A stretch of 64,000 bases of DNA from Rhodocyclaceae bacterium (GCA_013388985.1 JACAEF010000024.1:8370-72369), one strand, 5' to 3'. Counted from the first letter of the stretch, positions 1-50,414 are shown. A program made the numbers and translations. Notes: generated by a model from the sequence alone, not told the origin.

Positions 1-160
1 CGGCGGCCAGCGCGGTCAGCGAGGCGATCGCGATCTGCACCAGGATCGCCGGACCGAAGAACCAGACGTAGGCGACGATGCCGGGGACGAGCGCGGCGAG
101 CACCTTCAGCATCACGGCGCGCACGCTGACGGGCTGGGAGATGTGGGGGGCGTAGGCCAT
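1..160 (-). CDS. rnfD: Rnf/Rsx electron-transport complex subunit D, first 53 codons only (gene continues beyond window start)
   Basis: Manual reverse-complement translation from ATG 160..158 gives [53 protein letters not shown]. This fits the RnfD/RsxD N-terminal pattern (..PGI.A..WFFG...LVQI). The start overlaps the rnfC stop (TGATG) and follows the rnfA-B-C order. Confidence 0.6.
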   Translation of the reverse strand, partial: MAYAPHISQPVSVRAVMLKVLAALVPGIVAYVWFFGPAILVQIAIASLTALAA

Positions 161-32365: not shown

Positions 32366-32388
32366 TCATTCCTGCATCGCCAGCGGCG

Positions 32389-33147: not shown

Positions 33148-33587
33148 AACTCCTCGATCTTGCCTCGCGTGAGCTGCTCCCGCCAGACCGACGGGTTCTC
33201 GCGCATCTCGATTGGTCCGAGGTCGCGGCGATGTGGAATGGCAACCGTCTGGAACAACTTCACGACTGGCTCAACGAACGCTGGTCGCGGCTGATCCGCA
33301 ACAGCCTGCTCGGCACGAAGGACCCCGAAGCGGAATTTCTGCAGGCACTCGCCTATGCCGTGCTGGCTCTGTTCTTCACCCAGAATCACAATCAGGAAGG
33401 CGCACTCCTGATGATCGACGATGCACAGCTGACGCTGGGGAAATATCGCCCTCGCTTCCTCGGCGTGCACGTCGATCCGATCCTCGCCGCGTTGCAAGAG
33501 CTGCGACCCCTGCTGGTCGGACTCGCCCCTGACGCGGAGTGTCCACTCTATCCTTTCGTCTATCCGAAATTCGAATACACGGGCTGA
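33144..33587 (+). CDS. Hypothetical protein, possibly DUF309-like
   Basis: 147 aa. ATG overlaps the upstream stop (ATGA). LHDWLNERW...FLQALAYAVLALFFTQNHNQEGALLMIDDA loosely resembles the DUF309 helical pattern. Confidence 0.45.
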   Translation: MKLLDLASRELLPPDRRVLAHLDWSEVAAMWNGNRLEQLHDWLNERWSRLIRNSLLGTKDPEAEFLQALAYAVLALFFTQNHNQEGALLMIDDAQLTLGKYRPRFLGVHVDPILAALQELRPLLVGLAPDAECPLYPFVYPKFEYTG

Positions 33588-33593
33588 TTTCTC

Positions 33594-34286
33594 ATGGATA
33601 GAGCGGTGAGCGAGAAGTCGTCGCTGTTGATACGGCGGCTGGCAGCCTTCGACCCGGAGCGGACGGAGCGGATCACGGCGGAAGATTTCCTCTTCGACGC
33701 GCCGGGCATCGAGACCGTCGCTGACGCATGTGCGGGCATCGTCGTCGCGACGGGTGGCGCCGAGCGGGCTATGACCTTGCTGGCTGTCGGTGCGCCTTTT
33801 GTATTCCTCGGCGATGCAGCGCTGAGCGACAGCGATGCGCTGACACGGCTGGCGCAGGCGCATCCGGGACGTATCGGCATCCATGCCTTGGCGCGGCGCA
33901 TGGCTGTCAGCTGGTCGTTCGAGACGACCTCGAACGCCGATTTCAAGACCGTGGCGCCTTCTCTGTGCGAGCCATCCTGGGAAATCCTCAAGTCTGACGG
34001 TGCGCCGACCGGCGTGCTCGCCGGCTGGTGGCTGAAAGCCATGCAGGACTTGGGGGCGATGGGCATGCTCGTCCGCGCCGAAGTGTGCGATGACACCGAT
34101 CTCAACATCCTCGCCGGCCTGAGCGAGGAATTCGGTGACCTCCTCTGGGTCGCGCCACTGAATGGCATGCATCTGCCCCTCGCCGACTGGGTTGTCTATG
34201 GCCATGGCCGGCGACTGGCCCTGCCCGACGAGATTCATGCACGCCGTGCGGAACTGCTCGGCGACTTTATGGCCGCGGCCCGATGA
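33594..34286 (+). CDS. Hypothetical protein with HisA/HisF-like TIM-barrel segment
   Basis: 230 aa. IVVATGGAERAMTLLAVGAPFVFLGDAALSDSDALTRLAQAHPGRIGIHAL aligns by eye with the HisF segment VAGGI....A..L..GADK..I...AL.DP.L...LA..FG. Tightly packed in the operon. Confidence 0.4.
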   Translation: MDRAVSEKSSLLIRRLAAFDPERTERITAEDFLFDAPGIETVADACAGIVVATGGAERAMTLLAVGAPFVFLGDAALSDSDALTRLAQAHPGRIGIHALARRMAVSWSFETTSNADFKTVAPSLCEPSWEILKSDGAPTGVLAGWWLKAMQDLGAMGMLVRAEVCDDTDLNILAGLSEEFGDLLWVAPLNGMHLPLADWVVYGHGRRLALPDEIHARRAELLGDFMAAAR

Positions 34287-34290
34287 GACC

Positions 34291-34746
34291 ATGAACTTTT
34301 CGCTTTCCGTGTTCCTCATGTTGCTGGGCCTGTCGGGCACCGTTCGCGCTGATGTCGTATTCATGGAGCGGGTGCAACTGCTCCAAGCCTTGAAGACCAA
34401 TGCTCCTTGTTGCGTCATCGATGCACGCAATGAAGTCAGCCGAAAAAAGCATCCACTCGATGATGCCTTGCCCTACACGGAAGACATGCGACTCAACCCC
34501 AGCGCGGCCATCGTCGTAATCGCGGATAACGATGCAAACGCTTTGCGCGTCGCAAAGATTCTCGATGCAGCCTATCCTGGCCAGCGAGTCTGCGCCGTCA
34601 AGGGTGGTGTGAGAGCCTGGGAAGCGACGCTCGTCGAACTCAGCCGTGCAGCCGCCAGCGGACCGCCGAGCGGCATCGGCTTCATCATTCCGAAGAATAC
34701 CTGCGAGTCGGGCTCACCGCTGCAACGGCTGCGCAGCGCCAAATAA
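34291..34746 (+). CDS. Secreted single-domain rhodanese-homology protein lacking the catalytic Cys
   Basis: Signal peptide MNFSLSVFLMLLGLSGTVRA. Rhodanese pattern (CCVIDARNE...AIVVIADNDANALRVAKIL...VKGGVRAWE). The active-site loop reads IADNDANALR, with no Cys. Confidence 0.55.
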   Translation: MNFSLSVFLMLLGLSGTVRADVVFMERVQLLQALKTNAPCCVIDARNEVSRKKHPLDDALPYTEDMRLNPSAAIVVIADNDANALRVAKILDAAYPGQRVCAVKGGVRAWEATLVELSRAAASGPPSGIGFIIPKNTCESGSPLQRLRSAK

Positions 34747-34751
34747 GTCAC

Positions 34752-35837
34752 ATGACGATAGCTTATCCAGAGTTTCACGCCTCGTGTTGCACCCGCTATC
34801 GCTACCGCTATAGCGAGTGCCGGCGCTGTGCCGATGCCTGTCCGCACGAGGCGATCGTTCTTGATGATCATGGCGCCGAGATCGACCGCTCACGTTGTCA
34901 AAACTGCGCTCTTTGTGTCTCGGCATGCCACACCGGCGCGTTGGCGAGTGCGACATTCAAGCCGATCGATCTGTTGCGTCAGGCCATCAAGCAGCCTGCT
35001 TACAGCATCGCCTGCGCACCTTCCGGCCTCGCTGCGGATGCAACCGTTCCCTGTCTGGGGGCGATCGACGCCGTGATGATCGCCTATCTGGGCAAGCGCC
35101 GCATCCCACTGTCCCTCCTTGGCAGTGCGCATTGCAGCGACTGTCCCCATGGCGCGCGTGGTGCCGCGCAGCTGGTGCTCAATCTCGACGCGGCCAGTGC
35201 ATTGAAGCGGGCTGCGCAGGAGGAGGGGAGAGACTGGCTCGATCCGGGGCTTGTCGATACCTCGGTCGTGAGCAAGCCAGTCCGGGCGGAGCGCCGCCAG
35301 TTGTTCCGCCGCTTCATCGGTCGCGGAGTCGATGCCGTGACTGCGTCACAAACCGCGGCTCGCGCCGTGATTCCCGACAGGGCCATCCGTGCCGGTCCCT
35401 ATGTGGGCACCGAACAGCGCGAGCTGTTGCAGATCGTCTGTGAGCGTAAGGACGGCCAGCCCGCACGCATCGGCTGGCACGAAGCGCTACCATTGATGCA
35501 ACTTACATTGCAGGCGGGTTGCACTGCTTGTGAAGCCTGTTTCCGCGCCTGTCCGACCGGTGCGATCCAGATCGCCGAGGATTCCGCTGACTGGGCCCTG
35601 ACGTTCCAGACCGATCGCTGCGTCGCCTGCGAGGTCTGTCTCGAAGTCTGCCAGCCGCGCGTGCTCGATGCCGCAGCTGGTTTCGATGCCCGTCCCGAAC
35701 AGCCGGTGCAGGTATTGCATCGCCTGCACAAGCAGCGCTGTGCACGCTGCGATCGTTTTTTTGTCTCGGCCCGGCCGGCGGAAACCTGCCCGGTCTGCCG
35801 TGACGACGAAGAAGCATTCGCGGCGATATTCGGATAG
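34752..35837 (+). CDS. Polyferredoxin (2+2 [4Fe-4S] motifs) with C-terminal CxxC...CxxC zinc-ribbon, paralogue 1
   Basis: Motifs CRRCADACP, CQNCALCVSAC, CTACEACFRACP, CVACEVCLEVC, and C-terminal CARCDRFFVSARPAETCPVC. Same architecture as 36283..37452. Confidence 0.7.
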   Translation: MTIAYPEFHASCCTRYRYRYSECRRCADACPHEAIVLDDHGAEIDRSRCQNCALCVSACHTGALASATFKPIDLLRQAIKQPAYSIACAPSGLAADATVPCLGAIDAVMIAYLGKRRIPLSLLGSAHCSDCPHGARGAAQLVLNLDAASALKRAAQEEGRDWLDPGLVDTSVVSKPVRAERRQLFRRFIGRGVDAVTASQTAARAVIPDRAIRAGPYVGTEQRELLQIVCERKDGQPARIGWHEALPLMQLTLQAGCTACEACFRACPTGAIQIAEDSADWALTFQTDRCVACEVCLEVCQPRVLDAAAGFDARPEQPVQVLHRLHKQRCARCDRFFVSARPAETCPVCRDDEEAFAAIFG

Positions 35838-35853
35838 CAAGGAGTTGGAAGCG

Positions 35854-36255
35854 ATGGAATGGGAATTCACCCCCGAAGATGTCGTCAAGGGCTACAGCGG
35901 CTACGGTCTGGCCGAGTTCCGCCGCGACCTGGCCGAAGAGGTGCGCATCAACGTCGGCGACGATGCCGAGCGCTTTGCGCGCGTCTATCATCTGCTCTAC
36001 GATCTCTGTTACGCGCTCGCCACCAACAAGGATTTCGAGGCGCATCTGTCCGCTTATGCCTACGATCCACCGACGGTGCAGTTCCTGCGTGAATTGCAAC
36101 CGCTGATGGAAGACAACGTCGCCATGTTGGGGGCTATCCTGCAGCGCCAGATCATGGATCGCGTCGCCGCTGGCATGCCGCTGGAGACCGCGATTGCCGA
36201 CGTCGCCGAATGGCACCGACAGAGCATTGCCGCCGAGCCTGCCGCAGCGGACTGA
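35854..36255 (+). CDS. Small acidic hypothetical protein (133 aa)
   Basis: RBS AAGGAG 9 nt upstream of the ATG. MEWEFTPEDVVKGYSGYGLAEFRRDLAEEV... No family recognised. Last gene of operon 1. Confidence 0.5.
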   Translation: MEWEFTPEDVVKGYSGYGLAEFRRDLAEEVRINVGDDAERFARVYHLLYDLCYALATNKDFEAHLSAYAYDPPTVQFLRELQPLMEDNVAMLGAILQRQIMDRVAAGMPLETAIADVAEWHRQSIAAEPAAAD

Positions 36256-36281
36256 GTGCCGTCTCACCAGCGCCGACTTTG
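36256..36281 (+). repeat. Dispersed intergenic repeat, copy 7 (GTGCCGTCTCACCAGCGCCGACTTTG)
   Basis: Read directly. Exactly fills the 27-nt gap between the convergent stops of the two oxidoreductase operons. Confidence 0.8.
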
Positions 36282-36282
36282 C

Positions 36283-37452
36283 TCACGAACCCTTGAAGAG
36301 GCTGGCTCCCATGGCATGATTGCGTCGACAGCTGGGGCAGAGTGCGCTCAGGGAGGAAGTGGCGAAAACCCGCAGACATTCGCGGCAGATCCGCAAGGCA
36401 TGGCTGGTCAGCCGTTGCGGCGCTTCGCTGAGGGGGGGAGTGTCGGCGCGACGCAGGCGCAGCGCGTGCTCTGGGCAGGCGGTCACGCATCTACCGCAGC
36501 CAATGCAGCGCAGCGCATCGAACTCGATGCCGGTTCGTTCCGGTTCCTCATAGCGTCTGAGCGCCGCGGTTGGACAGACCCCTGCGCAGACCGTGTGATT
36601 GGCGCACTCCGGCTCGATTTCCACGACGTGAAACGGCGTGGCGGGAACGGAATGCCCGGCTCGCGTCGCGACACGCAGTAGCAGCGTGAGCAGACGTGAG
36701 CGCGCCGGTAACGGCATCAGGTCTGTTCTGCGCAGGGCATGGGGTTGCGGGAGCTTCTGGGCGTCGTCGATGCCGACCGCGCGTCTGGCTTCGTTGCCCA
36801 GCCGCAGCAGAAAACCTCGCCGCGCCGGGGCGGTGGGGGCAGCGTCAGGAATATGTCGGGGCATCCGGCTGGCCGGCAAGGGTTCGCGACTCAGCCTGGG
36901 GAGGTATGTGGCAGGCACGCCTGCCACCTCCAGCCATTGCGCGGCTGTTTCGAGTGCCGCAGCAGCCGGATGCCGTTCGACGCATTTTGCCCCGGCATTG
37001 CACTGGCGGCACCAGCCTCGATCGATGACGAGCACGGGTTGCGTCCCCGCATTTTCGACCAGTTCGAGCCAGTCCGCAGGCGCCAGACCACCCAGGCAGG
37101 GAACGCGCAGGGCCGTTCCGGCAACGTGGCGATCGATCTTCTGACACTCGATACGCAACGGGGTGACGGCCGGAAGCGCATCGGGCAGAGCGAAGCCTTT
37201 GACGACAAGGGCGCCGGTGGGACAGGCGGCCGCGCAGCGGCCGCAGCCGAGGCATTGATTGCCGATGCGAAATACGCCCGCGCCGATGTCGATGCACTCG
37301 ACCGGGCAGGCGCTGCGGCAGGTACTGCAACCCGATTCGTCGAATCGCAGGGCGATGCAGGCCGCAGGCAACAGACGCACCCGGCCATCGGCTTCGACCG
37401 CCTGCCAGTCATGCCCCGATGACACGGCGGAATACTGCAGGGAATCTCTCAC
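36283..37452 (-). CDS. Polyferredoxin (2+2 [4Fe-4S] motifs) with C-terminal zinc-ribbon, paralogue 2
   Basis: Motifs CSTCRSACP, CLGCGRCAAACP, CANHTVCAGVCP, CIGCGRCVTACP, and C-terminal CRECLRVFATSSLSALCPSC. GTG start overlaps the upstream stop (GTGA). Confidence 0.7.
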   Translation of the reverse strand: MRDSLQYSAVSSGHDWQAVEADGRVRLLPAACIALRFDESGCSTCRSACPVECIDIGAGVFRIGNQCLGCGRCAAACPTGALVVKGFALPDALPAVTPLRIECQKIDRHVAGTALRVPCLGGLAPADWLELVENAGTQPVLVIDRGWCRQCNAGAKCVERHPAAAALETAAQWLEVAGVPATYLPRLSREPLPASRMPRHIPDAAPTAPARRGFLLRLGNEARRAVGIDDAQKLPQPHALRRTDLMPLPARSRLLTLLLRVATRAGHSVPATPFHVVEIEPECANHTVCAGVCPTAALRRYEEPERTGIEFDALRCIGCGRCVTACPEHALRLRRADTPPLSEAPQRLTSHALRICRECLRVFATSSLSALCPSCRRNHAMGASLFKGS

Positions 37453-38249
37453 TTGATGGCGCGCTTGAAGTAACCTTGCATCGCGTCACGGCACTCGGGG
37501 CAGTGATCGAGATGATCGACCGCCAGGCCGGCTTCGGTGAGGGCCTTGATCATGATGCCGATTTCTTTTTCCCGCGCGAATGGCTTGCCGCAGGTCTTGC
37601 AGTGGCGCCAGACACCAAGGCTCGTATCGGCACGGCGTTCGGCATGGCGGCGCCGTTGCAGGGTCTTCTTGTCCGGCTCGGCAACGAGTTCAGCCATGGC
37701 CTTGCTGGCAAGCCTGGCAAGCGGAGCGTAGGGGGAAGCGGTGGATTCGGCCTCGATCGCCGCCGTCAGGCGCGGCAGGGCTCCGACCAGACAGACATTG
37801 GCGAACTGCTCGGGGGAAAGCGCCGGATCCGGCTCGCCATACAGGACGGCGAGCGTTTCCAGTTGCACCGACAGATGATCGGGCAAGTCCTTCAGCGCGT
37901 CGCGTTTGACGATGCCCGCCAGCCGGTAGGCGTTTTCGAGTGCGTCGAGGCAGGGGCCGTTCAATGCGCCGTCGATATAGATGCCGAGGTTGAGTTTGGC
38001 GGGGATCGGCGGTTGGAGAAACAGGTGGCTGTAATCCACCAGCAGCCCGAGATTGTCCGGGATGCGGCCGAGGCTGAGGCGGAACGCGGTGAGTTCCGGT
38101 TGTGCTGCGATGCCGAGGGCCGTGCACAGTTCATCGAGATCCTCGACCAGCGCGGTGCGAAAGGCTGTTGCGACTTCAGGGCGCTGCGGCGGCAGGAAGG
38201 CGTTGGCGAGCGTGAGCCAGAAGGTCTGCTTGATTTCGTCGGCTGTCAT
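37449..38249 (-). CDS. TorD-family chaperone fused to a C-terminal CxxC-N30-CxxC zinc-ribbon domain (ArxD-like position)
   Basis: The N-terminal ~180 aa is TorD-like (LVDYSHLF...PDHLSVQLETLAVL). The C-terminus is HCKTCGKPFAREKEIGIMIKALTEAGLAVDHLDHCPEC. Confidence 0.65.
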   Translation of the reverse strand: MTADEIKQTFWLTLANAFLPPQRPEVATAFRTALVEDLDELCTALGIAAQPELTAFRLSLGRIPDNLGLLVDYSHLFLQPPIPAKLNLGIYIDGALNGPCLDALENAYRLAGIVKRDALKDLPDHLSVQLETLAVLYGEPDPALSPEQFANVCLVGALPRLTAAIEAESTASPYAPLARLASKAMAELVAEPDKKTLQRRRHAERRADTSLGVWRHCKTCGKPFAREKEIGIMIKALTEAGLAVDHLDHCPECRDAMQGYFKRAIK

Positions 38250-38306
38250 GGCGAGAAGGCCGATGCGCCAGAGAAGGATGGCGCACCGGCAAACGGCTGA
38301 ATACTA

Positions 38307-39512
38307 TCAGGCGGCGGCGCCCGCCAGCTTGTTTTGCGTTGTGTGATTGGGCGTGGCCGACAGATGGAAGAGTTTCTCACCGATCGCATAGCCACCGAGT
38401 GCCACTGCCAAGCCGAAGATCGCCATCGCCCATTCGGTCGTCGAAGGGAAGTAAGGCTCGAGGCTGTTGACCCACGTGCCCTTGAACATCGGTACGACCT
38501 GACCGCTGACGATGAATTCGTAGCGGTTGATGAACATCCCTCCCAGGACGAGGAAGGCGGCGATCATCTGCGGCTGCATGCGCACCTGCATGCCGGGTTG
38601 CAGCATCATCCAGAACGGGAGGACGAGGCCGAGCAGGAATTCGATCCAGAACAAGGGAGACCTGATGAGGACATGGAATCCTTCCAGTCCGTCGAGGTTG
38701 CTCCACAAGCCGGTCCACATGCGGGTGACGATCATCACCAGGGTGATGCCGATCAGCGTGGCGAACACTTTCGGCAATTGATCGCTTTCGGCCAGCGCAC
38801 GCAATTCGTCAGGCATGTTGCGGTTGTCGAAGTCGAAGGCCATGTAGGTCGTCACCACGATCGCCGCGGCGCCGCAAAGCGCGGCGGTCAGCATGTAGTA
38901 GATCGAGGTGAAGGAACCGAACCACATCGGCCGCATCGCGACGGAACCGAACAGCAGCCCAAGCATGCCGGAGGCGAGGATGACGGCGACGAAGCTGGCT
39001 ACGCCGATGAGCTTGGACAGGTTGCTGTGCCAGTCGTCCTGCATGATCAGGTAGAACTTGATGATCAGCAGCACGAGATCGATCGTGTAGAACACGCCCA
39101 TCCAGAACATCGGACTCGCCACCTGCATGCCGGTGGGCATCGCCCAGAGCATGCGGAAGGGGTGGCCGAGCTCGAACGCCAACACGGCGAAGCCAGAGGC
39201 CAGGGTGATGATGGCCAGCCAGATGCAGCGCTTGACGATCGGATAAAACTGTTTGAAGCCGAACACCATCGCCAATGAAGCGATCATCGACAGGCCGGAG
39301 GAGGTCAGGGCGAAGAACACATAGGTGGCGATCGGCAGCCCCCAGTTGACGCCGTCGCTCGAGGTGTTGAACGCTGCATGACCGACGCTCGTCAACTGAT
39401 AAAGCATGTAGGCGCCGGAAATGCCGCCGACGATGATGCAAGAGACCAGCCAGGCATTGGCCGCCGAACGCACGCGGCTGCTGATCTCCGTCGATTTCGC
39501 GAAAGTTGCCAT
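38307..39512 (-). CDS. NrfD/PsrC-family membrane subunit, 'C2' (ArxC/ArrC-like)
   Basis: 401 aa, about 10 TM helices, directly downstream of the Fe-S subunit. Confidence 0.75.
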   Translation of the reverse strand: MATFAKSTEISSRVRSAANAWLVSCIIVGGISGAYMLYQLTSVGHAAFNTSSDGVNWGLPIATYVFFALTSSGLSMIASLAMVFGFKQFYPIVKRCIWLAIITLASGFAVLAFELGHPFRMLWAMPTGMQVASPMFWMGVFYTIDLVLLIIKFYLIMQDDWHSNLSKLIGVASFVAVILASGMLGLLFGSVAMRPMWFGSFTSIYYMLTAALCGAAAIVVTTYMAFDFDNRNMPDELRALAESDQLPKVFATLIGITLVMIVTRMWTGLWSNLDGLEGFHVLIRSPLFWIEFLLGLVLPFWMMLQPGMQVRMQPQMIAAFLVLGGMFINRYEFIVSGQVVPMFKGTWVNSLEPYFPSTTEWAMAIFGLAVALGGYAIGEKLFHLSATPNHTTQNKLAGAAA

Positions 39513-39523
39513 GAGGATTCTCC

Positions 39524-40276
39524 TTAGATCTTCTTGAGCGAACGTGTGGCGGGAACGGAGCCGCCTTCACCGGTGAGGTAATAGACCTGCGGTTTGTTGC
39601 CGAGGTGATCGAGCAAACGCACGCCGTTCTTGTAGGCGATCTGCCTGTTGACCTCGCTGTTCGGATTCGACAAATCGCCAAAGAACCGGGCGCCGGGCGA
39701 GCAGGTCACGACGCATGCAGGCGTGTATTCGCGCGTGGCGGGATTTTGCGGATCGAAATCCACGGTGCCCTTGGGCGCTTTGCTGACACGGTGAAAACAG
39801 AAGGTGCATTTCGAAACCACGTCGTGCGGCTGCACGCCGACACCGTGCTTCCAATCCTCCTGGGGCATCTTCCAGGGCGGACTCCATGAATGCGCGTCTT
39901 CGCTCTTGAAGACATCTTTCATGTTGGGGCCGCCGTAAGTCGCCTTTTCCTCGGTATAGAAACGCACGCCATAAGGGCAGGCGATCATGCAGTACTTGCA
40001 ACCGATACACCGCTCCCAGTCGATCAGCACCTGACCATCCTCGGCCTTGTAGGTGGCGCGCACCGGGCAGACCGCAACGCACGAAGGGTTCTCGCAATGC
40101 ATGCACGGGCGCGGGAACCATTTGATTTCTGCGTTCGGATATTCACCCTCCTGAAAAAAGATGACGTCTTGCCAATGCTCGCCGGGCAGCCGGCTGTTTT
40201 CCATGCCGCAAGCGATGGTGCAAGCCTGGCAACCCGTGCATTTTTCCAGATCGATGACCATTCCCCACTTTGCCAT
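39524..40276 (-). CDS. 4x[4Fe-4S] electron-transfer subunit, 'B2' (ArxB/ArrB-like)
   Basis: WGMVIDLEKCTGCQACTIAC, CMHCENPSCVAVCP, CIGCKYCMIACP, CTFC...PACVVTC. Confidence 0.85.
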   Translation of the reverse strand: MAKWGMVIDLEKCTGCQACTIACGMENSRLPGEHWQDVIFFQEGEYPNAEIKWFPRPCMHCENPSCVAVCPVRATYKAEDGQVLIDWERCIGCKYCMIACPYGVRFYTEEKATYGGPNMKDVFKSEDAHSWSPPWKMPQEDWKHGVGVQPHDVVSKCTFCFHRVSKAPKGTVDFDPQNPATREYTPACVVTCSPGARFFGDLSNPNSEVNRQIAYKNGVRLLDHLGNKPQVYYLTGEGGSVPATRSLKKI

Positions 40277-40287
40277 GATGCGCTCCT

Positions 40288-43077
40288 TTAGACTCGTTCC
40301 ACACTGACCAGGCCGCTGTGGTAGCAGGCCAGGCCAGACAAGGGTTCCGACAGATTCTCGGTGACTTCGTTGGTGCTGCCGGAGGGTAGGCGGTCCTTGG
40401 CCTCGGCCCAGCGGCCTTGCGCCCAGTGGCCATGGATCATCGGCAGTACGACGGTATCGGGCCGAGTGGTGTGCGTCACGCGCGCGCGCACGCGAATCTC
40501 ACCGATCTTGTTCTTGATCTTGACGATGTCCCCGTCTCGGATGCCACGCTTGGCCGCGGCTTCGGGATGGATTTCGAGAAACACTTCGCGTTTGCCGCCC
40601 TGTACCGGCTGGATCATGGCCGTGACATGCGGCAGATTGGCACTGCGCCCTTCCGCCTGCCCGGCGAGCTTGGGAGAGACGAAATGCAGATCACCATTGC
40701 CGCCGTGCCTGGGTTCGACCCATTGCGGGAAGGGCGCGCGTTCGGCGGGCAGACCGAATCTTTCTTGAACATAGTCGGCATGATGTTCGAGTTCCGTGAC
40801 CTTGAGCTCGAACTTGCCCGTCGGGGTCGGCATCACCTTTTCCTTGACTTCGGCCGCGGTGAGGATCTTGTTGTAGCCCTTGCCATCCCATTCGTAAAAC
40901 ACCCCATCCTTTTGCAGGTAGGCATAGGGCTTGCGGTACCAGACCCCCTTCTGCTTGAAGGTCTCGAAGTCGACGACCCCGTTGTCGCCGGGTTTTTCCT
41001 TGAAGCCTTCGCACATCCACTTGATGATGTTTTCGGTATTGTCGATCTTCTTGTAGTACTCGGCGGTCGGTCCTTTGATGCGCTTGCCGATTTCGATGAT
41101 CACATCGCCGAAGACCTTGGTGTCGTACAACGGCTTGATCGCTGGTGTGCGGATCATCGAGATCGGATAACCCTCGTAAGGATAGGTATCGGCGATTTGC
41201 AAGCGTTCGAGGTAGGTGTGATCGGGAAGGATCAGATCGGCGAACCTGTTGGTTTCGCCAGGAAAGGGCGAGGTGTCGATGACGAAAACTTCGCGCCACA
41301 TCTCCTCCCATTTGGTGCAATCGGGTCCAGAGAACACCGCGCCGGTCATATAGATGATCGCCGTGTCGAGCTTGTAGGGCTCGCCCTTCAGATGGTTGAT
41401 GGCGATCTCCTGCATCATGTTCTTCGCCAGCGGCCATTTTTTCGTCTTGACCATGTCGATGCGCGGCTGTTTTTTCCACGGCCCATCCTTGGCGTAATCG
41501 TCCTGGTAGTCTTCGACCTTGATCGGCAGCTTTGCCCAGGCCGTCTTCATCTGATAGCCGCGCAACCCACCCTTGGCGAACATGTTGCCGGTCAAGGCAT
41601 TGAGCGCATGGATCGCCATACCGTTATAGACGCCGTTGGTGTGCGCCGAGGCGCCGCGTTCGAACAGAGCGACCGCCGGCTTGGTCGTCGCGAATTCGCG
41701 CGCCACTGTGATGATGTCCTTGGCGGAGACGCCGGAGATTTCCTCGGCCCATTCCGGGGTGCGATCTTTCAGTTCGATGTTCCACCACTCGATCAGGCCG
41801 TGCGTCCATTTTTCCTGGAACAGCGGTTGGCCGACGACGGGGACGGGCTCGGGTTTTCTGTCTTTTTCGAGCATGGCACGCTGCTCGGCAATCAGCTTGG
41901 CCTTCGCATCGGCTTCGTCCTGCTTCTTCAGCGCCTCGGCAAGTTTCTTTTCGAGCGCCGCCTTCGCATCTCCTTTGGCCTCTTTGACCGCTTTCTTCAG
42001 CTTGTCGATCTCGGCCAGCATCTTGACCTTTTCTTCAGCCGCCTTTTGCGCCGCCGCGTCCTTCTTCGCGGCGGCTTCGGCCTTGGCGGCTTTCCAGGCG
42101 TCGACGTCTTCCTGATTTACCGTGAGCGGGATCGCTGCGCCTGTCTTGAAGCGATTGATGCCATCGACGAAGTCGCCGACGAAATGCTTGTCCCATAGCC
42201 CTTCGGTGAGGATCACATGCGCCATCGCCAGCGCCAGCGCACCGTCGCGGCCAGGTTTGACGAGTAGCAGGCGGTCGGCGGAGGACCCTGTCGTATTGAG
42301 ATGCACATCGACCACCGTGACCTTGGTCTTCGGCGATTTGCTGCGCATCAGGCCCCATTTCTGCATGTTGGGATTGAAGGGGCGGAAGGCTTCGAGGAAG
42401 CCTGCGCCGAAGACGAGCAGGTAGTTGGTGTTGGCATAATCGTAGGCGCTGTAGGCATGATGCCCGTCCATGATGTGCTTGACGGTTTCGGAAGCATCCG
42501 AGCACATCGAAGAATGGCCGAGGTTGTAGTTCGGCGTGCCGTAGAGTTTGCCGAATTCGGTGAGCAGTCCGACGTCGGAATAGCCCCAGCCGCGCCCGGT
42601 GAGCGTGGCGAAGCGGTGCGATTCACCTTTTTCACGCAGTGCGTTCAGGCGGCCAGCGACGATGTCGAGGGCTTCGTCCCAGGAGATCGGCACGAATTTC
42701 GGATCCTCGTTTCGACCTTTCTTGGGGTTGGTGCGTTTCATCGGCCCCTTGATGCGGTCGGCGTCGTAGGTCAAATACACGCCATAATGCCCCTTCGGGC
42801 AGAGCTTGCCATTGGAGAGGGGATTGTCGAGAGTGCCATAGATCGCGTGGATGCGGCCGTTGGTCGTATAGACGTCGATGCCGCAGCGTGCCGGGCATTG
42901 GTGGCAGAAACTCTTGGTGACCACTGTCTGTCCCGTGGTCGTCGGTGCCTCGGCTTGCGCCTTCTGCACGCTGATCAACTGACTGCCCAGTCCGATGCTG
43001 CCGGCCGCACCTGCAACACCCGTCGCTTGGAGAAACCTGCGGCGTGTCAGTTTCGGATTGAAGAGGGAATCGCTCAT
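40288..43077 (-). CDS. arxA: Tat-exported Mo-bisPGD oxidoreductase catalytic subunit 2, ArxA-like (carries TGRGWG motif), with ~100-aa K/A/E-rich insertion, 'A2'
   Basis: Tat signal LTRRRFLQATGVAGAAG. Canonical C58-x2-C61-x3-C65-x26-C92. TGRGWG at aa 160-165 (nt 42583..42600). Probable Mo-ligand Cys in GHSSMCSD. RBS GAGGAG. Start at Met30 of the ORF, giving 929 aa. Confidence 0.6.
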   Translation of the reverse strand: MSDSLFNPKLTRRRFLQATGVAGAAGSIGLGSQLISVQKAQAEAPTTTGQTVVTKSFCHQCPARCGIDVYTTNGRIHAIYGTLDNPLSNGKLCPKGHYGVYLTYDADRIKGPMKRTNPKKGRNEDPKFVPISWDEALDIVAGRLNALREKGESHRFATLTGRGWGYSDVGLLTEFGKLYGTPNYNLGHSSMCSDASETVKHIMDGHHAYSAYDYANTNYLLVFGAGFLEAFRPFNPNMQKWGLMRSKSPKTKVTVVDVHLNTTGSSADRLLLVKPGRDGALALAMAHVILTEGLWDKHFVGDFVDGINRFKTGAAIPLTVNQEDVDAWKAAKAEAAAKKDAAAQKAAEEKVKMLAEIDKLKKAVKEAKGDAKAALEKKLAEALKKQDEADAKAKLIAEQRAMLEKDRKPEPVPVVGQPLFQEKWTHGLIEWWNIELKDRTPEWAEEISGVSAKDIITVAREFATTKPAVALFERGASAHTNGVYNGMAIHALNALTGNMFAKGGLRGYQMKTAWAKLPIKVEDYQDDYAKDGPWKKQPRIDMVKTKKWPLAKNMMQEIAINHLKGEPYKLDTAIIYMTGAVFSGPDCTKWEEMWREVFVIDTSPFPGETNRFADLILPDHTYLERLQIADTYPYEGYPISMIRTPAIKPLYDTKVFGDVIIEIGKRIKGPTAEYYKKIDNTENIIKWMCEGFKEKPGDNGVVDFETFKQKGVWYRKPYAYLQKDGVFYEWDGKGYNKILTAAEVKEKVMPTPTGKFELKVTELEHHADYVQERFGLPAERAPFPQWVEPRHGGNGDLHFVSPKLAGQAEGRSANLPHVTAMIQPVQGGKREVFLEIHPEAAAKRGIRDGDIVKIKNKIGEIRVRARVTHTTRPDTVVLPMIHGHWAQGRWAEAKDRLPSGSTNEVTENLSEPLSGLACYHSGLVSVERV

Positions 43078-43160
43078 CGTGTTTTCTCCTCGTGGATAAG
43101 ATCGATGCTGATCAGGTCTGCGCACCTTCCTGGGGCGCAAACAACCCATGCCGTTACTCT

Positions 43161-43175
43161 GCAAACTCTGTTCCT
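43161..43175 (-). promoter_or_regulatory. Weak candidate sigma-54 promoter (minus strand AGGAAC-N5-TTGCA) for the A2 operon
   Basis: GG-N10-GC spacing is exact on the minus strand. The -12 TTGCA is good and the -24 is degenerate. Lies about 85 nt upstream of the ATG at 43077. Confidence 0.35.
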
Positions 43176-43346
43176 GAGCGGCACGCTCGGTTATCGTCCG
43201 GAGGACGTTCGTATTTTTTTCATCAACGACAGCAAAGACTTATCGCCTCTGAGGCAAAGGCCGCGATCATTTGCGCATGCGCGCGATAGCTTTGGGAAAG
43301 CCTAGGCCTAAAATAGCCGTTACCGTTTTTCGACAAAGGCCGGACC

Positions 43347-44234
43347 ATGACGAGGGGCGCGTTACCGCTTGAAGACGGCGCGCGTAGGCGCTGGCTGAAG
43401 CAGCTTGCCATCGGCGCGTTGACAGCAGGGATGGGGAAGGCGGTCGGGGCCGCCGCCCCGGGCACGATCCGGGTGGGCATGACGCCCGCCTTCCTCAATG
43501 ACCAGTATTCACTGTTGGCCGACTGGCGTGCTTATCTCCAGGCCAAGCTGGGTATGCCGGTGGAGTTCGTGCAACGTGATCGCTACCGTGAGACGATGGA
43601 CTTGCTCCATCTCGGCAAACTGGATTTCGCCTGGCTGTGTGATTACCCCTTCGTTTTTCTCAAAGACCTGGTCAGACTGCTAGTGGTGCCGCTCAATCAG
43701 GGCAGACCCTATTACCGCTCGTTACTGCTGGTTGGGGCGGCAGACCGCAGACGCAACAGCATGGCCGACCTGGCGGGCGGCGTGTTCGCTTTTGCCGATC
43801 CCTACTCGAATACCGGTTATCTCGCCCCGCGTTACCGGATTCGCGAACTGGGCCGCGATCCCAATACCTTTTTTCGCCAGACATACTTCACCTGGTCGCA
43901 CCGCAAGGTGATCGAAGCCGTGAGCAAAGGCTTTGCGGATGGCGGCGCGGTCGACAGTTTCGTCTGGGATACCCTGGAAAAGGTGCGTCCCGATGTCACC
44001 CAGGGGGCGCGCATCATCGAGCGCTCGCCGGAATATGCCTTTCCACCGTTTGCTGCGCATCGCGCGGTGCCGGCCGAAATGTTCGAGCGTATGCAGAAGG
44101 TGCTGATCGGCATGTCGCAGGACGAATCCGGCCGTTTGTTGCTGACGCGCCTCAATCTCGATGGCTTCATCGTCGGTCGGCGCCAGATGTATGACAGCGT
44201 GGCGAAAATGATGGCGGCATTCGGCGAGATCTGA
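43347..44234 (+). CDS. Periplasmic PhnD-fold oxyanion-binding protein, AioX/ArxX-like, paralogue 2
   Basis: Twin-arginine-like signal (ARRRWLKQLAIGALTAG). Aligns by eye with 26836..27705 over its whole length (GKLDFAWLCDYPF, FFTWSHRKVIEAV, ADGGAVDSFVWDTL). Confidence 0.75.
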   Translation: MTRGALPLEDGARRRWLKQLAIGALTAGMGKAVGAAAPGTIRVGMTPAFLNDQYSLLADWRAYLQAKLGMPVEFVQRDRYRETMDLLHLGKLDFAWLCDYPFVFLKDLVRLLVVPLNQGRPYYRSLLLVGAADRRRNSMADLAGGVFAFADPYSNTGYLAPRYRIRELGRDPNTFFRQTYFTWSHRKVIEAVSKGFADGGAVDSFVWDTLEKVRPDVTQGARIIERSPEYAFPPFAAHRAVPAEMFERMQKVLIGMSQDESGRLLLTRLNLDGFIVGRRQMYDSVAKMMAAFGEI

Positions 44235-45694
44235 TGCGGCGGTTTTTCGATCTCAGCCTACGTCACAAACTGCCTCTGTGGGGGAGCGGGCTGATCGTCG
44301 CCGCGACGCTGCTGGTCTCCGCCGGCCTGATGTATCGTGCCTACGCCGACTTGAAACACGATGTCATCGTCAGTTCCTCTGGGCTGGGACGAACACTGGC
44401 GAAGCCATTGTTTCAGGCTCTGCTCCACGACGATCTGTGGCGCGCCATCGAAATCATCAACTCGCCGTTGCAAGGGGGAAGCCATGATGCGCCAATGCAG
44501 GCGAGCGTGATTTTCATCCTCGATCCGGCGCTGAAAGTCAGGGCTTCGACAGCGCCGCGCAGCATGCCGCTCGATGCCGAGCTCGACAGCTTGGGGCAAG
44601 ACTATCGTCTCCTGGCGGCCGCGCTCGAGACTGCCGATCCGCAACAAAGCCACACCTTCGAATTCGCCGAATCGGATTACCTGCATGTCACCACGCCGCT
44701 GGCGGAGGAGGGCGGCCATCTCGGCACGCTCGTCATCACTCATTCCAAAAACGATTTCCTGCCACGCTTTTCCAGCATTGCGCTCGAAGGCGCCGGTATG
44801 GGTCTGCTGGCGCTCGCGATCCTGCTACCCATCAATTGGTATTGGGGGCGGCGCATGGCCGAACCGCTCGTGCAGTTGGCCAGTAATATGGCTTTGATGG
44901 TCAAGGGGGCGCCGGCGAATCTGCACCCCGAACTGTATGCCTACCACGACGAACTCGGCCAGCTCTTCAATGCCTACCGGCAGGCGGCTGAGGAAATCAG
45001 CGCCAAGGCGGCGCTCGAACGCGAGATGCTGCGTTCCGAGCGTCTGGCGGCGATAGGCAGGCTGGCCGCCGGCATCGCCCATGAAGTGAACAATCCGCTG
45101 ACCGGCATGCTGATCGCGCTGGACAATCTCAAGCAACGCAAGCCGGACCATGGCATCGATGCCAAGCTCATGCGCACGCTCGAATTCCTCGAGCGCGGGC
45201 TGGCGCAGATCTCTGAAACCATCGGTGCGCTGCTCGTCGAGTCGCGCGTGCAATTGCGCCCCCTCGAACGCCATGATTTCGAGGATGTCCGTACCTTGAT
45301 CGAACCCCAAGCCGCGCGCAGGTCGTTGCGGCTCGATTGGCAGGTTGCGGTCGCGGATCCGATCCCCGTCGCCGCTGGACAAGTGCGCCAGATTCTGATC
45401 AACCTGTTGCTGAACGCGGTCCAAGCCACCGCCAACGGCGGCCGGATCCGCTTCTCCGCCGAGAAACGCAATGACGGATTGCTGCTGGACGTGACCAATG
45501 AAGGTGTTCCGCCCCCTCCGCAGGTGCTCGCCCATATCTTTGAGCCCTTCGTCTCCGGGCGGGAAGGAGGGCATGGTCTCGGCCTGTGGGTGACTTACCA
45601 GACCGTCCAGCAATTGGGCGGGACGATCGTCATCGAAACGCCCGAGGGTCAGGTAACCTTCCGCGTCCACCTGCCAATCAAGGAAAACGGATGA
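44234..45694 (+). CDS. Sensor histidine kinase (AioS/ArxS-like), paralogue 2
   Basis: Two TM helices plus a periplasmic domain, H-box AHEVNNPL, LINLLLNAV, GHGLGLW. Start overlaps the upstream stop (TGATG). Confidence 0.8.
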   Translation: MRRFFDLSLRHKLPLWGSGLIVAATLLVSAGLMYRAYADLKHDVIVSSSGLGRTLAKPLFQALLHDDLWRAIEIINSPLQGGSHDAPMQASVIFILDPALKVRASTAPRSMPLDAELDSLGQDYRLLAAALETADPQQSHTFEFAESDYLHVTTPLAEEGGHLGTLVITHSKNDFLPRFSSIALEGAGMGLLALAILLPINWYWGRRMAEPLVQLASNMALMVKGAPANLHPELYAYHDELGQLFNAYRQAAEEISAKAALEREMLRSERLAAIGRLAAGIAHEVNNPLTGMLIALDNLKQRKPDHGIDAKLMRTLEFLERGLAQISETIGALLVESRVQLRPLERHDFEDVRTLIEPQAARRSLRLDWQVAVADPIPVAAGQVRQILINLLLNAVQATANGGRIRFSAEKRNDGLLLDVTNEGVPPPPQVLAHIFEPFVSGREGGHGLGLWVTYQTVQQLGGTIVIETPEGQVTFRVHLPIKENG

Positions 45695-47028
45695 GAGCCG
45701 GAATCTGTCTGATCGAAGACGATCCTTTCGTCGGTAGCCCGCTTTCGGAGCGGCTGGAAATGGACGGCTATGTCTGTGACTGGTTCCAGACGGGGGCCGA
45801 AGCACTGGCGGCGTTGCGCAAGAACCGTTATCAACTGGCCATCAGCGACATCCGCTTGCCCGACATCAGTGGCGAAGAACTGTTCGAGACCTTGCGCCAG
45901 GAAGAAATTTATCTGCCGCCCTTTCTCTTCATCACCGGGCATGGCACCATCGACCAGGCCGTCCGGCTGCTGAAGCTCGGCGCCCATGATTACATCACCA
46001 AGCCATTCGACCCCAGCGCGCTGATGGCAAAAGTGCGCAGCCTGTGCGACAGCCGGCTTGCCATCGCCGCTACCCAGAGCCTGGGAATTTCTACGGCCAT
46101 GCGCACGATCGAGGCCTTGCTGCCGCGGCTGGCCACCAGTCGCAGCCCAGTGCTGATCACAGGCGAATCGGGCGTTGGCAAGGAAGAGGTGGCGCGTCAT
46201 TTACACCGCTTGGGCGATCCCACGGGCAATAAGCCCTTCATCGCCGTCAATTGCGGTGCGATTCCCGAAACCTTGATCGAATCGGAACTCTTCGGTCACG
46301 AGAAGGGCAGTTTCACCGGGGCGGTGAAGGCGCGCAGCGGCGTGTTCGAACAGGCCGACGGCGGCACGCTCTTCCTCGACGAAATCGGTGAAATGCCCTT
46401 GCCGATGCAAGTCAAGTTGCTGCGGGCGATCCAGGACAGCGCGATCGTGCCGGTGGGTGGCGAGATGCCCCGACCCGTGAATATCCGCCTGGTATGCGCG
46501 ACGCATCGCGATCTCAAGGCGATGGTGGAAAACGGCGAATTCCGTGAAGATCTGTACTACCGCATCCACGTCATCCACTTGCCGATACCTCCGCTCAGGG
46601 AACGGCAGGACGACATTCTCTGGCTCACGGAGCGCTTCCTTGCCGAAATCGGACGGCGCGAACGTCGGTTGCTCTCGATCTCCGCGCGCGCCGCGAGCGC
46701 GATGGTGAATTATCCTTGGCCGGGCAACATCCGCGAATTGCGTCATTGCCTCGAACGTGCCGCGGTTCTTTCAGCAAGCGATTGTTTCGAGACGGCAGCG
46801 CTCTTCGGCGGGGCAACCGCGCTGGCGGAGGCCGCCAATCAGTCGATGGACCGTCAGCCGCTCGGCGAATATATGGAAGCCTGCGAACGCGATTACATCA
46901 ATCGCGCCCTGGGCGAAGCCGGAGGCAAAATCAGCCGGGCGGCGGTGCTGCTCGGCATCAGCCGCAAGAATCTGTGGCAGAAAATGCGCAGACTGGGCAT
47001 CAGCGCCAATAGCGGCGAGGATGCCTGA
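45691..47028 (+). CDS. Sigma-54-dependent response regulator, paralogue 2
   Basis: MRAGICLIEDD...[46 protein letters not shown]-terminal HTH. ATG overlaps the kinase stop (ATGA). Confidence 0.85.
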   Translation: MRAGICLIEDDPFVGSPLSERLEMDGYVCDWFQTGAEALAALRKNRYQLAISDIRLPDISGEELFETLRQEEIYLPPFLFITGHGTIDQAVRLLKLGAHDYITKPFDPSALMAKVRSLCDSRLAIAATQSLGISTAMRTIEALLPRLATSRSPVLITGESGVGKEEVARHLHRLGDPTGNKPFIAVNCGAIPETLIESELFGHEKGSFTGAVKARSGVFEQADGGTLFLDEIGEMPLPMQVKLLRAIQDSAIVPVGGEMPRPVNIRLVCATHRDLKAMVENGEFREDLYYRIHVIHLPIPPLRERQDDILWLTERFLAEIGRRERRLLSISARAASAMVNYPWPGNIRELRHCLERAAVLSASDCFETAALFGGATALAEAANQSMDRQPLGEYMEACERDYINRALGEAGGKISRAAVLLGISRKNLWQKMRRLGISANSGEDA

Positions 47029-47072
47029 GAGTGGAGAATGACATCTCGAGTTACGTTGCATTCATCGGGCGC

Positions 47073-47098
47073 GTGCCGTCCCGCCAGCGCCGACTTTG
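47073..47098 (+). repeat. Dispersed intergenic repeat, copy 8 (GTGCCGTCCCGCCAGCGCCGACTTTG)
   Basis: Read directly. Lies 45 nt after the regulator stop and 19 nt before the OsmC-like ATG. Confidence 0.85.
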
Positions 47099-47117
47099 AT
47101 CATTCGTGGAGACAGAA

Positions 47118-47564
47118 ATGAGTGAGCCGCAATTCACTTTCACGCTCGAACAGCAGGAGGACTACGCCTTCCTCGTGCGTTTCGACAACGACCTGCCGGC
47201 CCTGCTGACCGACGAGCCGCCGCCGCTGGGCAAGGGCGCGGGGCCGAACCCGTCGCGGCTGATCGCGGCCGGCGTGGCCAACTGCCTGATGGCGAGCCTG
47301 CTGTTCGCGTTGCGCAAGTTCAAGAACGAGCCCGGCAGGCTCACCGCCACGGTGACCGCCCAGATGACGCGCAACGAGCAAAAGCGCCTGCGCATCGGCC
47401 GCATCGATGTCGAGCTGCGCTTCAGTGCGGCCGCGGCCGGGATGGAGCATCTCGACCGCATCCTGGCCACTTTCGAGGACTATTGCGTGGTCACGCAAAG
47501 CGTGCAAAGCGGCATTCCGGTGGGCATTGCGGTCTATGATGGCACGGGCGCCCAGCTGAAATAG
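47118..47564 (+). CDS. OsmC/Ohr-family protein
   Basis: LGKGAGPNPSRLIAAGVANCLMASLLFALRK and a later CVVTQS are typical of the OsmC family. ATG at 47118 is preceded by GGAGA. A GTG at 47106 is an alternative start. Confidence 0.7.
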   Translation: MSEPQFTFTLEQQEDYAFLVRFDNDLPALLTDEPPPLGKGAGPNPSRLIAAGVANCLMASLLFALRKFKNEPGRLTATVTAQMTRNEQKRLRIGRIDVELRFSAAAAGMEHLDRILATFEDYCVVTQSVQSGIPVGIAVYDGTGAQLK

Positions 47565-48564: not shown

Positions 48565-49934
48565 TGACGACGAGACAATATTTCGGCACCGACGGGGTGC
48601 GCGGCCGCGTCGGCCGGTTTCCGATCACGCCGGATTTCGCGCTGCGGCTGGGTTTTGCCGCCGGCGAGACGCTCGTCGCCCATGCGCGCGAATCAGGCCA
48701 TGCGCGCGATGGCGAGCGTCCGGCGGTGCTGATCGGCAAGGACACGCGCATTTCCGGCTACATGCTCGAAGCGGCGCTGGAGGCGGGCTTTGCCGCGGCC
48801 GGCGTCGACGTGATGCTGTGCGGGCCGCTGCCGACGCCGGCCGTCGCCTATCTGACCCGGGCGCTGCGTCTGGCCGCGGGCGTGGTGATCTCCGCCTCGC
48901 ACAATCCGTATGACGATAATGGCATCAAGTTCTTCGCTGCCGGCGGCTGGAAGCTGCCCGATGCGGTGGAGGCCGAGATCGAGGCGCGGCTGGCTGAGCC
49001 GATGGGCTGCCGGCCATCGAGCGAGCTCGGCAAGGCCCGCCGGGTTGACGATGCGGCGGGCCGTTACATCGAATTCTGCAAGAGCACCTTTCCCAACGAT
49101 CTCGACCTGCGCGGCTTGAAACTCGTCGTCGATTGCGCCCATGGCGCCGCCTACAACGTCGCCCCGAAGGTCTTTCACGAGCTCGGTGCCGAGGTGGTGG
49201 CGGTGGGCGCCCAGCCCGACGGCCTCAACATCAACGCCGGCGTCGGCGCGACGGTGCCGGCCTTCCTGCAGGAGCAGGTGCAAAAGCACCAAGCCGATCT
49301 GGGCATCGCCCTCGATGGCGACGCCGACCGTGTCGTGATGGCCGATGCCAGCGGCCGCCTGTTCGACGGCGACGCGCTGCTCTATGTGATCGCCCGCCGC
49401 CAGCAGGCCGCCAAAGGCCTGCCGGGGATCGTCGGCACCCTGATGAGCAACCTCGGCTTCGAGCAGGCGCTGGCGCGGCTGGGCATCGGTTTCGCGCGCG
49501 CCAAGGTCGGCGACCGTTACGTGCTGGAGATGATGCAGGAGAAAGGCTGGCCCTTGGGCGGCGAGAATTCCGGCCACATCATCTGTCTCGACCGGCATAC
49601 CACCGGCGATGGCATCGTCGCCGCGCTGCAGGTGCTGGCGGCCTTGCGCGAGCGTGGCGAGACGCTTGCGCAAGCCTGTGCCGACCTGACCATGTTCCCG
49701 CAGAAGCTGATCAACGTCCGCTTCACCAAGCCCTTCGACTGGCGCAGCAATGCCGCCATCCAGGCCGCGACGGCGCGCGCCGAGAAGATCCTCGACGGCA
49801 GGGGCCGCGTGCTGCTGCGCCCCTCGGGCACGGAGCCCCTGCTGCGCGTGATGGTCGAAGGCGAGGACGGGGCGCTCGTGCTGGCCCAGGCCGAGGCAAT
49901 CGCCGCGGCGGTGCGGGCGGCTGCGGATCTGTGA
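48564..49934 (+). CDS. glmM: Phosphoglucosamine mutase
   Basis: YFGTDGVRG, the phosphoserine loop [22 protein letters not shown]-type DGDADRV. ATG overlaps the folP stop. RBS GGGAGGA. Confidence 0.92.
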
Positions 49935-49946
49935 TGAGCCTTTGAG

Positions 49947-49972
49947 GTGCCGTCCCGCCAGCGCCGATTTCT
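49947..49972 (+). repeat. Dispersed intergenic repeat, copy 9 (GTGCCGTCCCGCCAGCGCCGATTTCT)
   Basis: Read directly. Lies between the convergent stops of glmM (49934) and dgkA (49979). Confidence 0.85.
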
Positions 49973-49978
49973 TTCTGC

Positions 49979-50380: not shown

Positions 50381-50414
50381 GCGCGAAAGATAGCAGCTTT
50401 GCGCTGCATCCCGG

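Follow-up and report, generated by a model that had tools for sequence, protein, structure and literature searches.

A probable group 3 arx (anaerobic arsenite oxidase) gene cluster from a Sulfuricystis-like betaproteobacterium

The DNA stretch analysed here, 64,000 nucleotides (nt) of a Rhodocyclaceae bacterium (GCA_013388985.1 JACAEF010000024.1:8370-72369; hereafter the window), carries at positions 36283-47028 eight genes which, as judged from sequence, very probably represent a cluster for arx, the anaerobic arsenite oxidase, that belongs to the published 'group 3' and comes from a betaproteobacterium akin to Sulfuricystis, of the family that the NCBI taxonomy calls Sterolibacteriaceae. 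Five tightly packed genes occupy the minus strand from 36283 to 43077: arxA (40288..43077), coding for the catalytic subunit with molybdenum bis-pyranopterin guanine dinucleotide (929 amino acids (aa) counted from MSDS; Pfam Molybdop_Fe4S4, Molybdopterin and Molydop_binding); arxB (39524..40276), coding for a four-cluster ferredoxin of 250 aa (Fer4_11 and related Pfam families; ArrB/QrcC-like in NCBIfam); arxC (38307..39512), coding for an NrfD-type integral membrane quinone-interacting anchor of 401 aa (Pfam NrfD); arxD (37449..38249), coding for a maturation chaperone of the TorD/NarJ family (266 aa; Pfam Nitrate_red_del); and arxB2 (36283..37452), coding for a polyferredoxin of 389 aa with 25 cysteines and Fer4 families at both ends. 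Three plus-strand genes diverge from them: arxX (43347..44234), coding for a periplasmic binding protein and putative arsenite sensor of 295 aa (Pfam Phosphonate-bd), arxS (44234..45694), coding for a sensor histidine kinase of 486 aa (HisKA, HATPase_c), and arxR (45691..47028), coding for a sigma-54-dependent response regulator of 445 aa (Response_reg, Sigma54_activat, HTH_8). The gene boundaries match the calls on public contigs encoding an identical ArxA, from which the 445-aa call of arxR was taken. At least 14 metagenome contigs encode an identical ArxA, among them a 301-kb contig of the Joint Genome Institute (3300006865), and the places shown are from four different samples.

The A-B-C-D order with a divergent XSR operon, noticed in a preliminary description of this DNA, was confirmed by the Pfam and NCBIfam assignments and by the independent gene calls on the identical public contigs. 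Relatives were collected by a genome scan that retained the best 80 of 215 loci, among which Alkalilimnicola ehrlichii, Ectothiorhodospira, Azoarcus CIB and strain M52 are not included, and synteny was examined by tblastn searches of 84 fetched loci, with the eight proteins of the window as queries. In the usual layout of the fetched loci R-S-X and B2-A-B-C-D occupy opposite strands, and the XSR | (B2)ABCD synteny recurs in dozens of them. The order arxA-arxB-arxC followed by a TorD-like arxD is identical in all genome loci long enough to judge (80/80), homologues of arxD come after arxC in nearly all related loci, and arxS is collinear with the X and R genes.

ArxA carries the motifs of an exported molybdoenzyme, all encoded on the minus strand. 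The twin-arginine translocation (Tat) motif TRRRFLQ (aa 11-17, 43027..43047) was recognized by motif and alignments; its residues R12, R13, R14 and F15 hardly vary, and L16 shows no variation in the alignment of 13 sequences and almost none in that of 79. The FS0 [4Fe-4S] motif C58-x2-C61-x3-C65...C93 (42799..42906; Pfam Molybdop_Fe4S4) has all four cysteines invariant in 79 homologues. Cys192 in the segment GHSSMC (42502..42504), which aligns with SHSSVC of the respiratory arsenate reductase ArrA, is nearly invariant in both alignments and is predicted to be the molybdenum ligand, a role which we take to be the same as in the ArrA structure.

Translation of 42562-42621 on the minus strand gives SHRFATLTGRGWGYSDVGLL, which places TGRGWG at residues 160-165 of the 929-aa protein (42583..42600), exactly where the preliminary description had put it. 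The contrast between XGRGWG in ArxA and (R/K)GRY in ArrA, ascribed there to the original description of the ArxA clade, is credited to Glasser et al. 2018 by PMC6549141. XGRGWG occurs in 116 of the 120 best ArxA homologues, and among the aligned 50%-identity representatives (at least 700 aa, drawn from the best 150) it is found only in the representative of the ArxA cluster. The clade-specificity of the motif, on which the preliminary description had made its reading depend, is thus borne out among these representatives and is qualified within the clade. A subclade of insertion-bearing ArxA-like proteins, comprising that of a Rhodoferax metagenome-assembled genome (MAG; L011) and proteins P0055, P0062 and P0070, has VGREWG in place of XGRGWG, and hence the motif is not strictly invariant inside the clade.

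The best solved relative of ArxA by sequence is ArrA of Shewanella ANA-3 (7.5e-111), followed by polysulfide reductase, and a fold search with the AlphaFold model (predicted local distance difference test, pLDDT, 86; predicted template modelling score 0.84) returned the same ranking with ArrA 6cz7 first. NCBIfam returned no ArxA model. Against its ArrA model NF041714 (cut-off 1600) the window protein scores 430 bits, within the range of ArxA-clade sequences including that of Sulfuricystis multivorans J5B (425-432 bits) and below the RGRY representatives (617-1178 bits); the ArrA score level is therefore not reached. The same is true of AioAB, for which model TIGR02693 gives 30 bits vs a cut-off of 359, and according to Pfam and the gene calls the cluster encodes no Rieske protein of the kind that forms the AioAB small subunit.

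In a neighbour-joining tree (90 sequences, 729 columns, 100 bootstraps) the window ArxA falls inside a 33-member clade with 100% support, in which every GRGWG sequence is found, among them those of Thioalkalivibrio, Halomonas boliviensis LC1, Nitrincola lacisaponensis 4CA, Halorhodospira and Azoarcus-like MAGs. These taxa are listed as arx carriers (PMC6549141; PMC5908839 Table S2). Within the clade the protein nests with sequences of Sulfuricella, Crystal-Geyser Hydrogenophilales and a Rifle groundwater MAG, which have been assigned to group 3 (PMC6549141). ArrA of ANA-3 groups apart with the RGRY sequences, at a node whose support is weak (16%). The nearest genome in the species collection, a Rhodocyclaceae MAG (L005), has an ArxA 89% identical to that of the window, and the cluster holding the Sulfuritortus calidifontis protein is 81% identical. 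The clustering with Sulfuricella, Sulfuritortus, Sulfuricystis and low-salt MAGs, along with the long helical insertion described below, identifies the protein as a group 3 ArxA.

Just outside the ArxA clade branch its nearest non-Arx relatives, the 50%-identity cluster representatives P0122, P0123 and P0124 (49%, 43% and 43% identical), which show GGRYRG, AGRLRG and YGRGMG at the motif position; P0124 may belong to the archaeal Methanoperedens clade named in PMC6549141. The candidate for 'alternative arsenite oxidation' of Thioalkalivibrio was ruled out, being a cytoplasmic Soe-like enzyme.

The large insertion that the preliminary description had seen in ArxA is real and amounts to about 100 residues (about aa 317-416, 41830..42129, minus strand; rich in Lys, Ala and Glu), as delimited by the gap against ArrA and by the AlphaFold model. 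It sits between ArrA-equivalent positions 275 and 277. At this site 121 homologues fall into three length classes of about 20, about 33 and about 120-128 residues, the window protein having 120, and the long insertions can be aligned with one another. In the model the insertion is a surface appendage, an antiparallel two-helix hairpin with helices 322-366 and 370-406 (pLDDT of the block about 88-92). Such an insertion is already published as a property restricted to group 3: it was first noted in Sulfuricella denitrificans and later in Sulfuritortus calidifontis J1A and in strains M52 and J5B, is rich in Lys, Ala, Glu and Leu and is predicted to form a coiled coil (PMC6549141). Of the insertion-less proteins, P0008 shares 86% core identity with the window ArxA, as compared with 86-87% for the insertion-bearing P0001 and P0002. 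With both kinds equally close to the window protein, the hairpin must have been lost or gained within group 3.

The remaining products of the minus-strand operon fit an enzyme of this type. ArxB has no signal peptide and its 16 cysteines form four 4-Cys motifs. ArxD ends in a zinc-ribbon-like CxxC-29-CxxC tail (aa 217-253, 37491..37601, minus strand) with the cysteines C217-x2-C220...C250-x2-C253. The tail had been listed in the preliminary description as a departure from canonical arx loci; the tail itself is genuine, and it is no departure, the same two CxxC pairs being present in 54 of 70 complete ArxD from the fetched loci, including Halomonas, Nitrincola, Thioalkalivibrio and Azoarcus-type clusters. 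Given this frequency, ArxD seems to combine a TorD-like domain with a small, zinc-ribbon-like Cys4 domain. Across all ARX groups the tail follows the pattern CxxC-27..29-CxxC with a conserved 'GL...HL..CP.CR' core, and no description of it was found in the arx literature examined.

An additional Fe-S protein resembling ArxB2 had been placed on the 3' side of the chaperone gene in the preliminary description, and this assignment stands. ArxB2 is 30-45% identical by tblastn to the gene that precedes arxA in most related loci and 60% identical to the downstream copy in the metagenomic lineage L086; a position 3' of arxD was found in L086 and also in L068 (Ca. Muproteobacteria). The downstream layout has been published for strain M52 and for a Ca. 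Muproteobacteria MAG, and arxB2 is said to be specific to arx clusters (PMC6549141). ArxB2 lacks a signal peptide, its gene overlaps arxD by 4 nt, and its C-terminus reads CxxC-12-CxxC. The polyferredoxin of the neighbouring operon (361 aa, 34752-35837) is its full-length paralogue (25% identity, same Cys motifs); both proteins end in CxxC...CxxC, and both operons hold a TorD-like gene upstream, which in the case of arxB2 is directly adjoining. On these grounds, namely the missing signal, the overlap with arxD, the C-terminal cysteines and the paralogue in an operon with a TorD-like gene, we speculate that ArxB2 might have a cytoplasmic maturation or redox-poising role comparable to that of NapF.

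In the Sulfuritortus-like contig L085 a 314-aa protein without family assignment follows arxD (9880-10824). The 314-aa gene found after arxD in Sulfuritortus-like contigs was rejected as an ArxB2 homologue, as it has no similarity to ArxB2. The same contig carries an AioA-like gene near arx (12615-14809; Rieske_3 and Molybdopterin), in keeping with the report that aio and arx occur together in strain J1A.

The divergent operon begins with a sensor gene. The best solved relative of ArxX is AioX 6esv of Rhizobium NT-26 (2e-59), ahead of the arsenate-binding ArrX (5e-36), and the protein is 44% identical to ArxX of A. ehrlichii, which binds arsenite at 311 nM (PMC5908839). Six of the seven AioX pocket residues are kept (the equivalents of Tyr88, Cys106, Tyr131, Ser161, His192 and Asp210), Ser163 being replaced by Thr; Cys98 of ArxX corresponds to Cys106 of AioX, the cysteine that bonds arsenite. 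Judged by its sequence relatives, ArxX is a periplasmic binding protein of the AioX/ArxX type and a predicted arsenite sensor.

A promoter scan revealed a sigma-54-type -24/-12 element, AGGAAC-N5-TTGCA (43160..43175, minus strand), which starts 98 nt and ends 83 nt upstream of the arxA ATG and whose GG and GC keep the spacing of sigma-54 promoters. In 28 of 33 distinct related loci a comparable element, with no more than two mismatches, occupies the equivalent position 5' of the first arx gene, as compared with a chance expectation of about 0.08 per region. No sigma-70-like site was found in 36000-47300, and the search for an upstream activator site of ArxR gave only a 9-nt palindrome at 43194-43205, which is not convincing.

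Comparison with known systems shows that the locus adds an environmental lineage to a system already known, the group 3 variant having been published before (Ospino et al. 2019, PMC6549141). Strain M52 (Sterolibacteriaceae, = Sulfuricystis thermophila, AP019373) shares with the window the divergence of arxXSR from arxABCD, the position of arxB2 downstream of arxD, and the long Lys/Ala/Glu-rich coiled-coil insertion of ArxA, a likeness taken from the published description and not from identity figures; the host is likewise a neutral-pH, low-salt, hot-spring-type betaproteobacterium with about 64% G+C. With this same gene order and insertion, and with no aio, M52 oxidises arsenite with nitrate or low oxygen (PMC6549141). 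An IS110 transposase adjoins arxR in M52, whereas osmC, folP and glmM-like genes take this place in the window, where no mobile-element genes were found next to arx. The preliminary description saw no ars resistance genes within the 64 kb, in agreement with the Pfam assignments covering the whole window, among which the ArsC, ArsB, Acr3, ArsR, ArsA, ArsH and ArsM families are missing. Their absence says little, since in M52 arsC, arsR and acr3 are located in other parts of the genome (PMC6549141).

The nearest cultured organism is Sulfuricystis multivorans J5B (AP018718), a neutrophilic and moderately thermophilic bacterium that oxidises sulfur and comes from a hot spring in Japan (PMC6397845). 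Its ArxA (full length, insertion included), ArxB and ArxC are 89%, 93% and 85% identical to those of the window, and its insertion is of the same length and sequence type. Unlike the window, J5B has arxB2 upstream of arxA, in the canonical position, and its ArxB2, ArxX, ArxS and ArxR reach only 40%, 63%, 53% and 60% identity. The window ArxX, ArxS, ArxR and ArxB2 are instead closest to the lineage L086 (84%, 79%, 86% and 60%), which also has arxB2 downstream. With A, B and C closest to J5B and X, S, R and B2 closest to L086, the structural core and the flanking modules have different histories, and the cluster is mosaic. This fits the horizontal transfer already proposed for arx (PMC6549141).

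The canonical arxB2ABCD/arxXSR clusters of groups 1 and 2 (A. ehrlichii MLHE-1, Ectothiorhodospira, Azoarcus sp. CIB) have the same eight genes, the motifs and the divergent regulatory operon, and the Cys-rich ArxD tail occurs in relatives of these groups. They differ in that arxB2 lies upstream and ArxA is without the long insertion, and the ArxA proteins are about 56-60% identical to that of the window (Thioalkalivibrio, Halomonas, Nitrincola and Azoarcus-like MAGs). ArrAB of Shewanella sp. ANA-3 (PDB 6CZ7) shares the fold (Foldseek E 5e-61, template modelling score 0.84 on target length), FS0, the HSSxC active-site segment and a four-cluster partner subunit; ArrA departs from the window ArxA in identity (about 27-28%), in having RGRY vs TGRGWG, in lacking the insertion, in its separate clade and in its opposite physiological direction.

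Every arx hallmark that can be tested in sequence was found at the locus: a position in the ArxA clade, XGRGWG, the arxABCD order, an arxB2 homologue and a divergent arxXSR with a sensor of the AioX/ArxX type. The arx-type minus-strand operon proposed in the preliminary description is thus supported by the clade with 100% bootstrap, the motif, the synteny, the sensor type and the sigma-54 element. Several points weigh against this assignment. The sigma-54 element of the window, with two mismatches to the consensus, is a weak match on its own. The preliminary description had proposed a tree with reference ArxA and ArrA sequences; the tree built here, which gave the GRGWG clade and the separate grouping of ANA-3 ArrA, does not contain the verified ArxA of MLHE-1, BSL-9, CIB and M52, so that clade membership is shown only indirectly, through taxa which the literature calls Arx. 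Finally, Arx of A. ehrlichii works in both directions in vitro, and hence the direction of catalysis in vivo cannot be read from sequence. Oxidation is favoured by the type of the sensor, the clade and, by analogy, the phenotype of M52.

The reversibility of Arx enzymes, together with ArrA being both the closest solved structure and the best NCBIfam match, might suggest that the enzyme acts in vivo as a respiratory arsenate reductase, with an Arr-like function on an Arx-like sequence. We regard this as improbable, since the protein lies inside the ArxA clade, has XGRGWG and not (R/K)GRY, and scores with the ArrA model far below ArrA-like sequences, while the sensor is closer to the arsenite-binding AioX and ArxX than to the arsenate-binding ArrX. 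The presence of arxB2, said to be arx-specific, points the same way, as does the arsenite oxidation by M52, whose gene order and insertion-bearing group 3 ArxA are alike by description, not by sequence comparison (PMC6549141). Marginally less probable still is a substrate other than arsenite, a different reduced metalloid or sulfur species such as antimonite or a thioarsenic species. Substrate measurements have yet to be made on group 3 enzymes, their hosts live by oxidising sulfur (PMC6549141), and pocket residues alone do not fix the ligand specificity of the AioX family (PMC5908839). The core of the window ArxA, however, is 56-60% identical to group 1/2 ArxA of known arx organisms and has the same motifs, and the ArxX and AioX proteins tested, when offered ten oxyanions with antimonite and thiosulfate among them, bound none but arsenite (PMC5908839). 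The sole published nitrate-dependent Sb(III) oxidase of the family, NaoA, was considered as a relative and ruled out as NapA-like and unrelated. That the cluster could be a decaying or silent remnant is hardly credible: apart from its mosaic appearance no evidence was found in support, whereas all eight open reading frames (ORFs) are intact with conserved cofactor motifs, and the identical ArxA recurs on the metagenome contigs from different samples mentioned above.

For an arsenite-oxidising arx cluster, what is established about Tat-exported complex iron-sulfur molybdoenzymes and about Aio/Arx XSR systems suggests how these components may act together. Arsenite would bind ArxX in the periplasm, upon which ArxS would phosphorylate ArxR, and ArxR in turn would activate the sigma-54 promoter of arxABCDB2. 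In the cytoplasm ArxD would hold the Tat leader while the cofactor is inserted into apo-ArxA, possibly with the help of ArxB2, and the folded ArxAB pair would then be exported by the Tat system and dock on ArxC. As(III) would be oxidised to As(V) at the molybdenum centre of ArxA, with electrons passing via FS0, the four ArxB clusters and ArxC to the quinone pool and further to nitrate or a high-affinity oxidase, the terminal enzyme being encoded outside the window.

The locus thus probably adds an environmental, presumably hot-spring, lineage to the low-salt group 3 ARX. The layout with arxB2 downstream is common to several lineages and came about along with recombination between arx modules. 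In the databases the ArxA homologues are named only as 'molybdopterin-dependent oxidoreductase'. As automatic annotation misses arx genes in this way, their correct calling should make it possible to estimate more accurately how much arsenite is oxidised anaerobically in waters of neutral pH.

A second molybdoenzyme locus, a conserved 12-gene unit of Ttr/Psr-like type (24049-36255), is oriented convergently to arx. Its minus-strand regulatory module consists of a sigma-54 regulator R' (24049-25404), a kinase S' (25388-26839) and an AioX-type sensor X' (26836-27639). On the plus strand follow a TtrB-like ferredoxin B1 (27963-28673), a TtrC-like membrane protein C1 (28687-29550), a Psr/Phs-like molybdoenzyme A1 of 879 aa with the Arr/Arx-like active-site segment HTSVC (29572-32211), a TorD-like protein D1 (32305-33147), three ORFs without family assignment (33231-34746), the 361-aa polyferredoxin paralogous to ArxB2 (34752-35837) and o133, a fourth ORF without family assignment (35854-36255). 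The unit as a whole is 80-91% conserved in Thauera, Aromatoleum aromaticum EbN1, Hydrogenophilus thermoluteolus and both Sulfuricystis species, and the same range holds for the identity of A1 in these organisms. It adjoins arx in at least six lineages (the window, J5B, L019, L024, L028 and L086); M52 has the same unit, located near dnaA and not beside arx.

X' matches AioX at 7e-71 and is 52% identical to ArxX of A. ehrlichii and 49% to ArxX of the window, both reference matches being better than those of the arx sensor itself. This closeness to AioX and ArxX, along with the position of the unit beside arx in at least six lineages, speaks for a connection with arsenic and raises the idea that arx and the unit form a two-enzyme, two-sensor arsenic module, in which the unit would provide a new arsenite-, thioarsenic- or antimony-responsive enzyme working with Arx. 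We consider this idea rather unlikely as it stands. No relevant account of the unit, or of a Psr-like enzyme under the control of an AioX-type sensor, came up when the literature was searched.

Adjoining this second regulatory module is a gene for a 309-aa signal-peptide-bearing two-domain rhodanese (23110-24039), similar to 3-mercaptopyruvate sulfurtransferase and weakly matching ExtH, a protein of the selenite/tellurite operon. A 389-aa ORF without family assignment is found at 19232-20401. An ATP-binding cassette (ABC) transporter encoded on the minus strand (16408-19122) comprises a binding protein of the SBP_bac_11 family, a permease, and an ATPase carrying TOBE_2, and resembles importers of molybdate or tungstate. 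Its genes precede the neighbouring molybdoenzyme unit by about 8 kb and are 17 kb away from arx. The housekeeping context (160-2812, 5040-8752 and 49500-51200) comprises Rnf complex genes, polyphosphate kinase, exopolyphosphatase and a PHO4/PhoU-like phosphate transporter pair.

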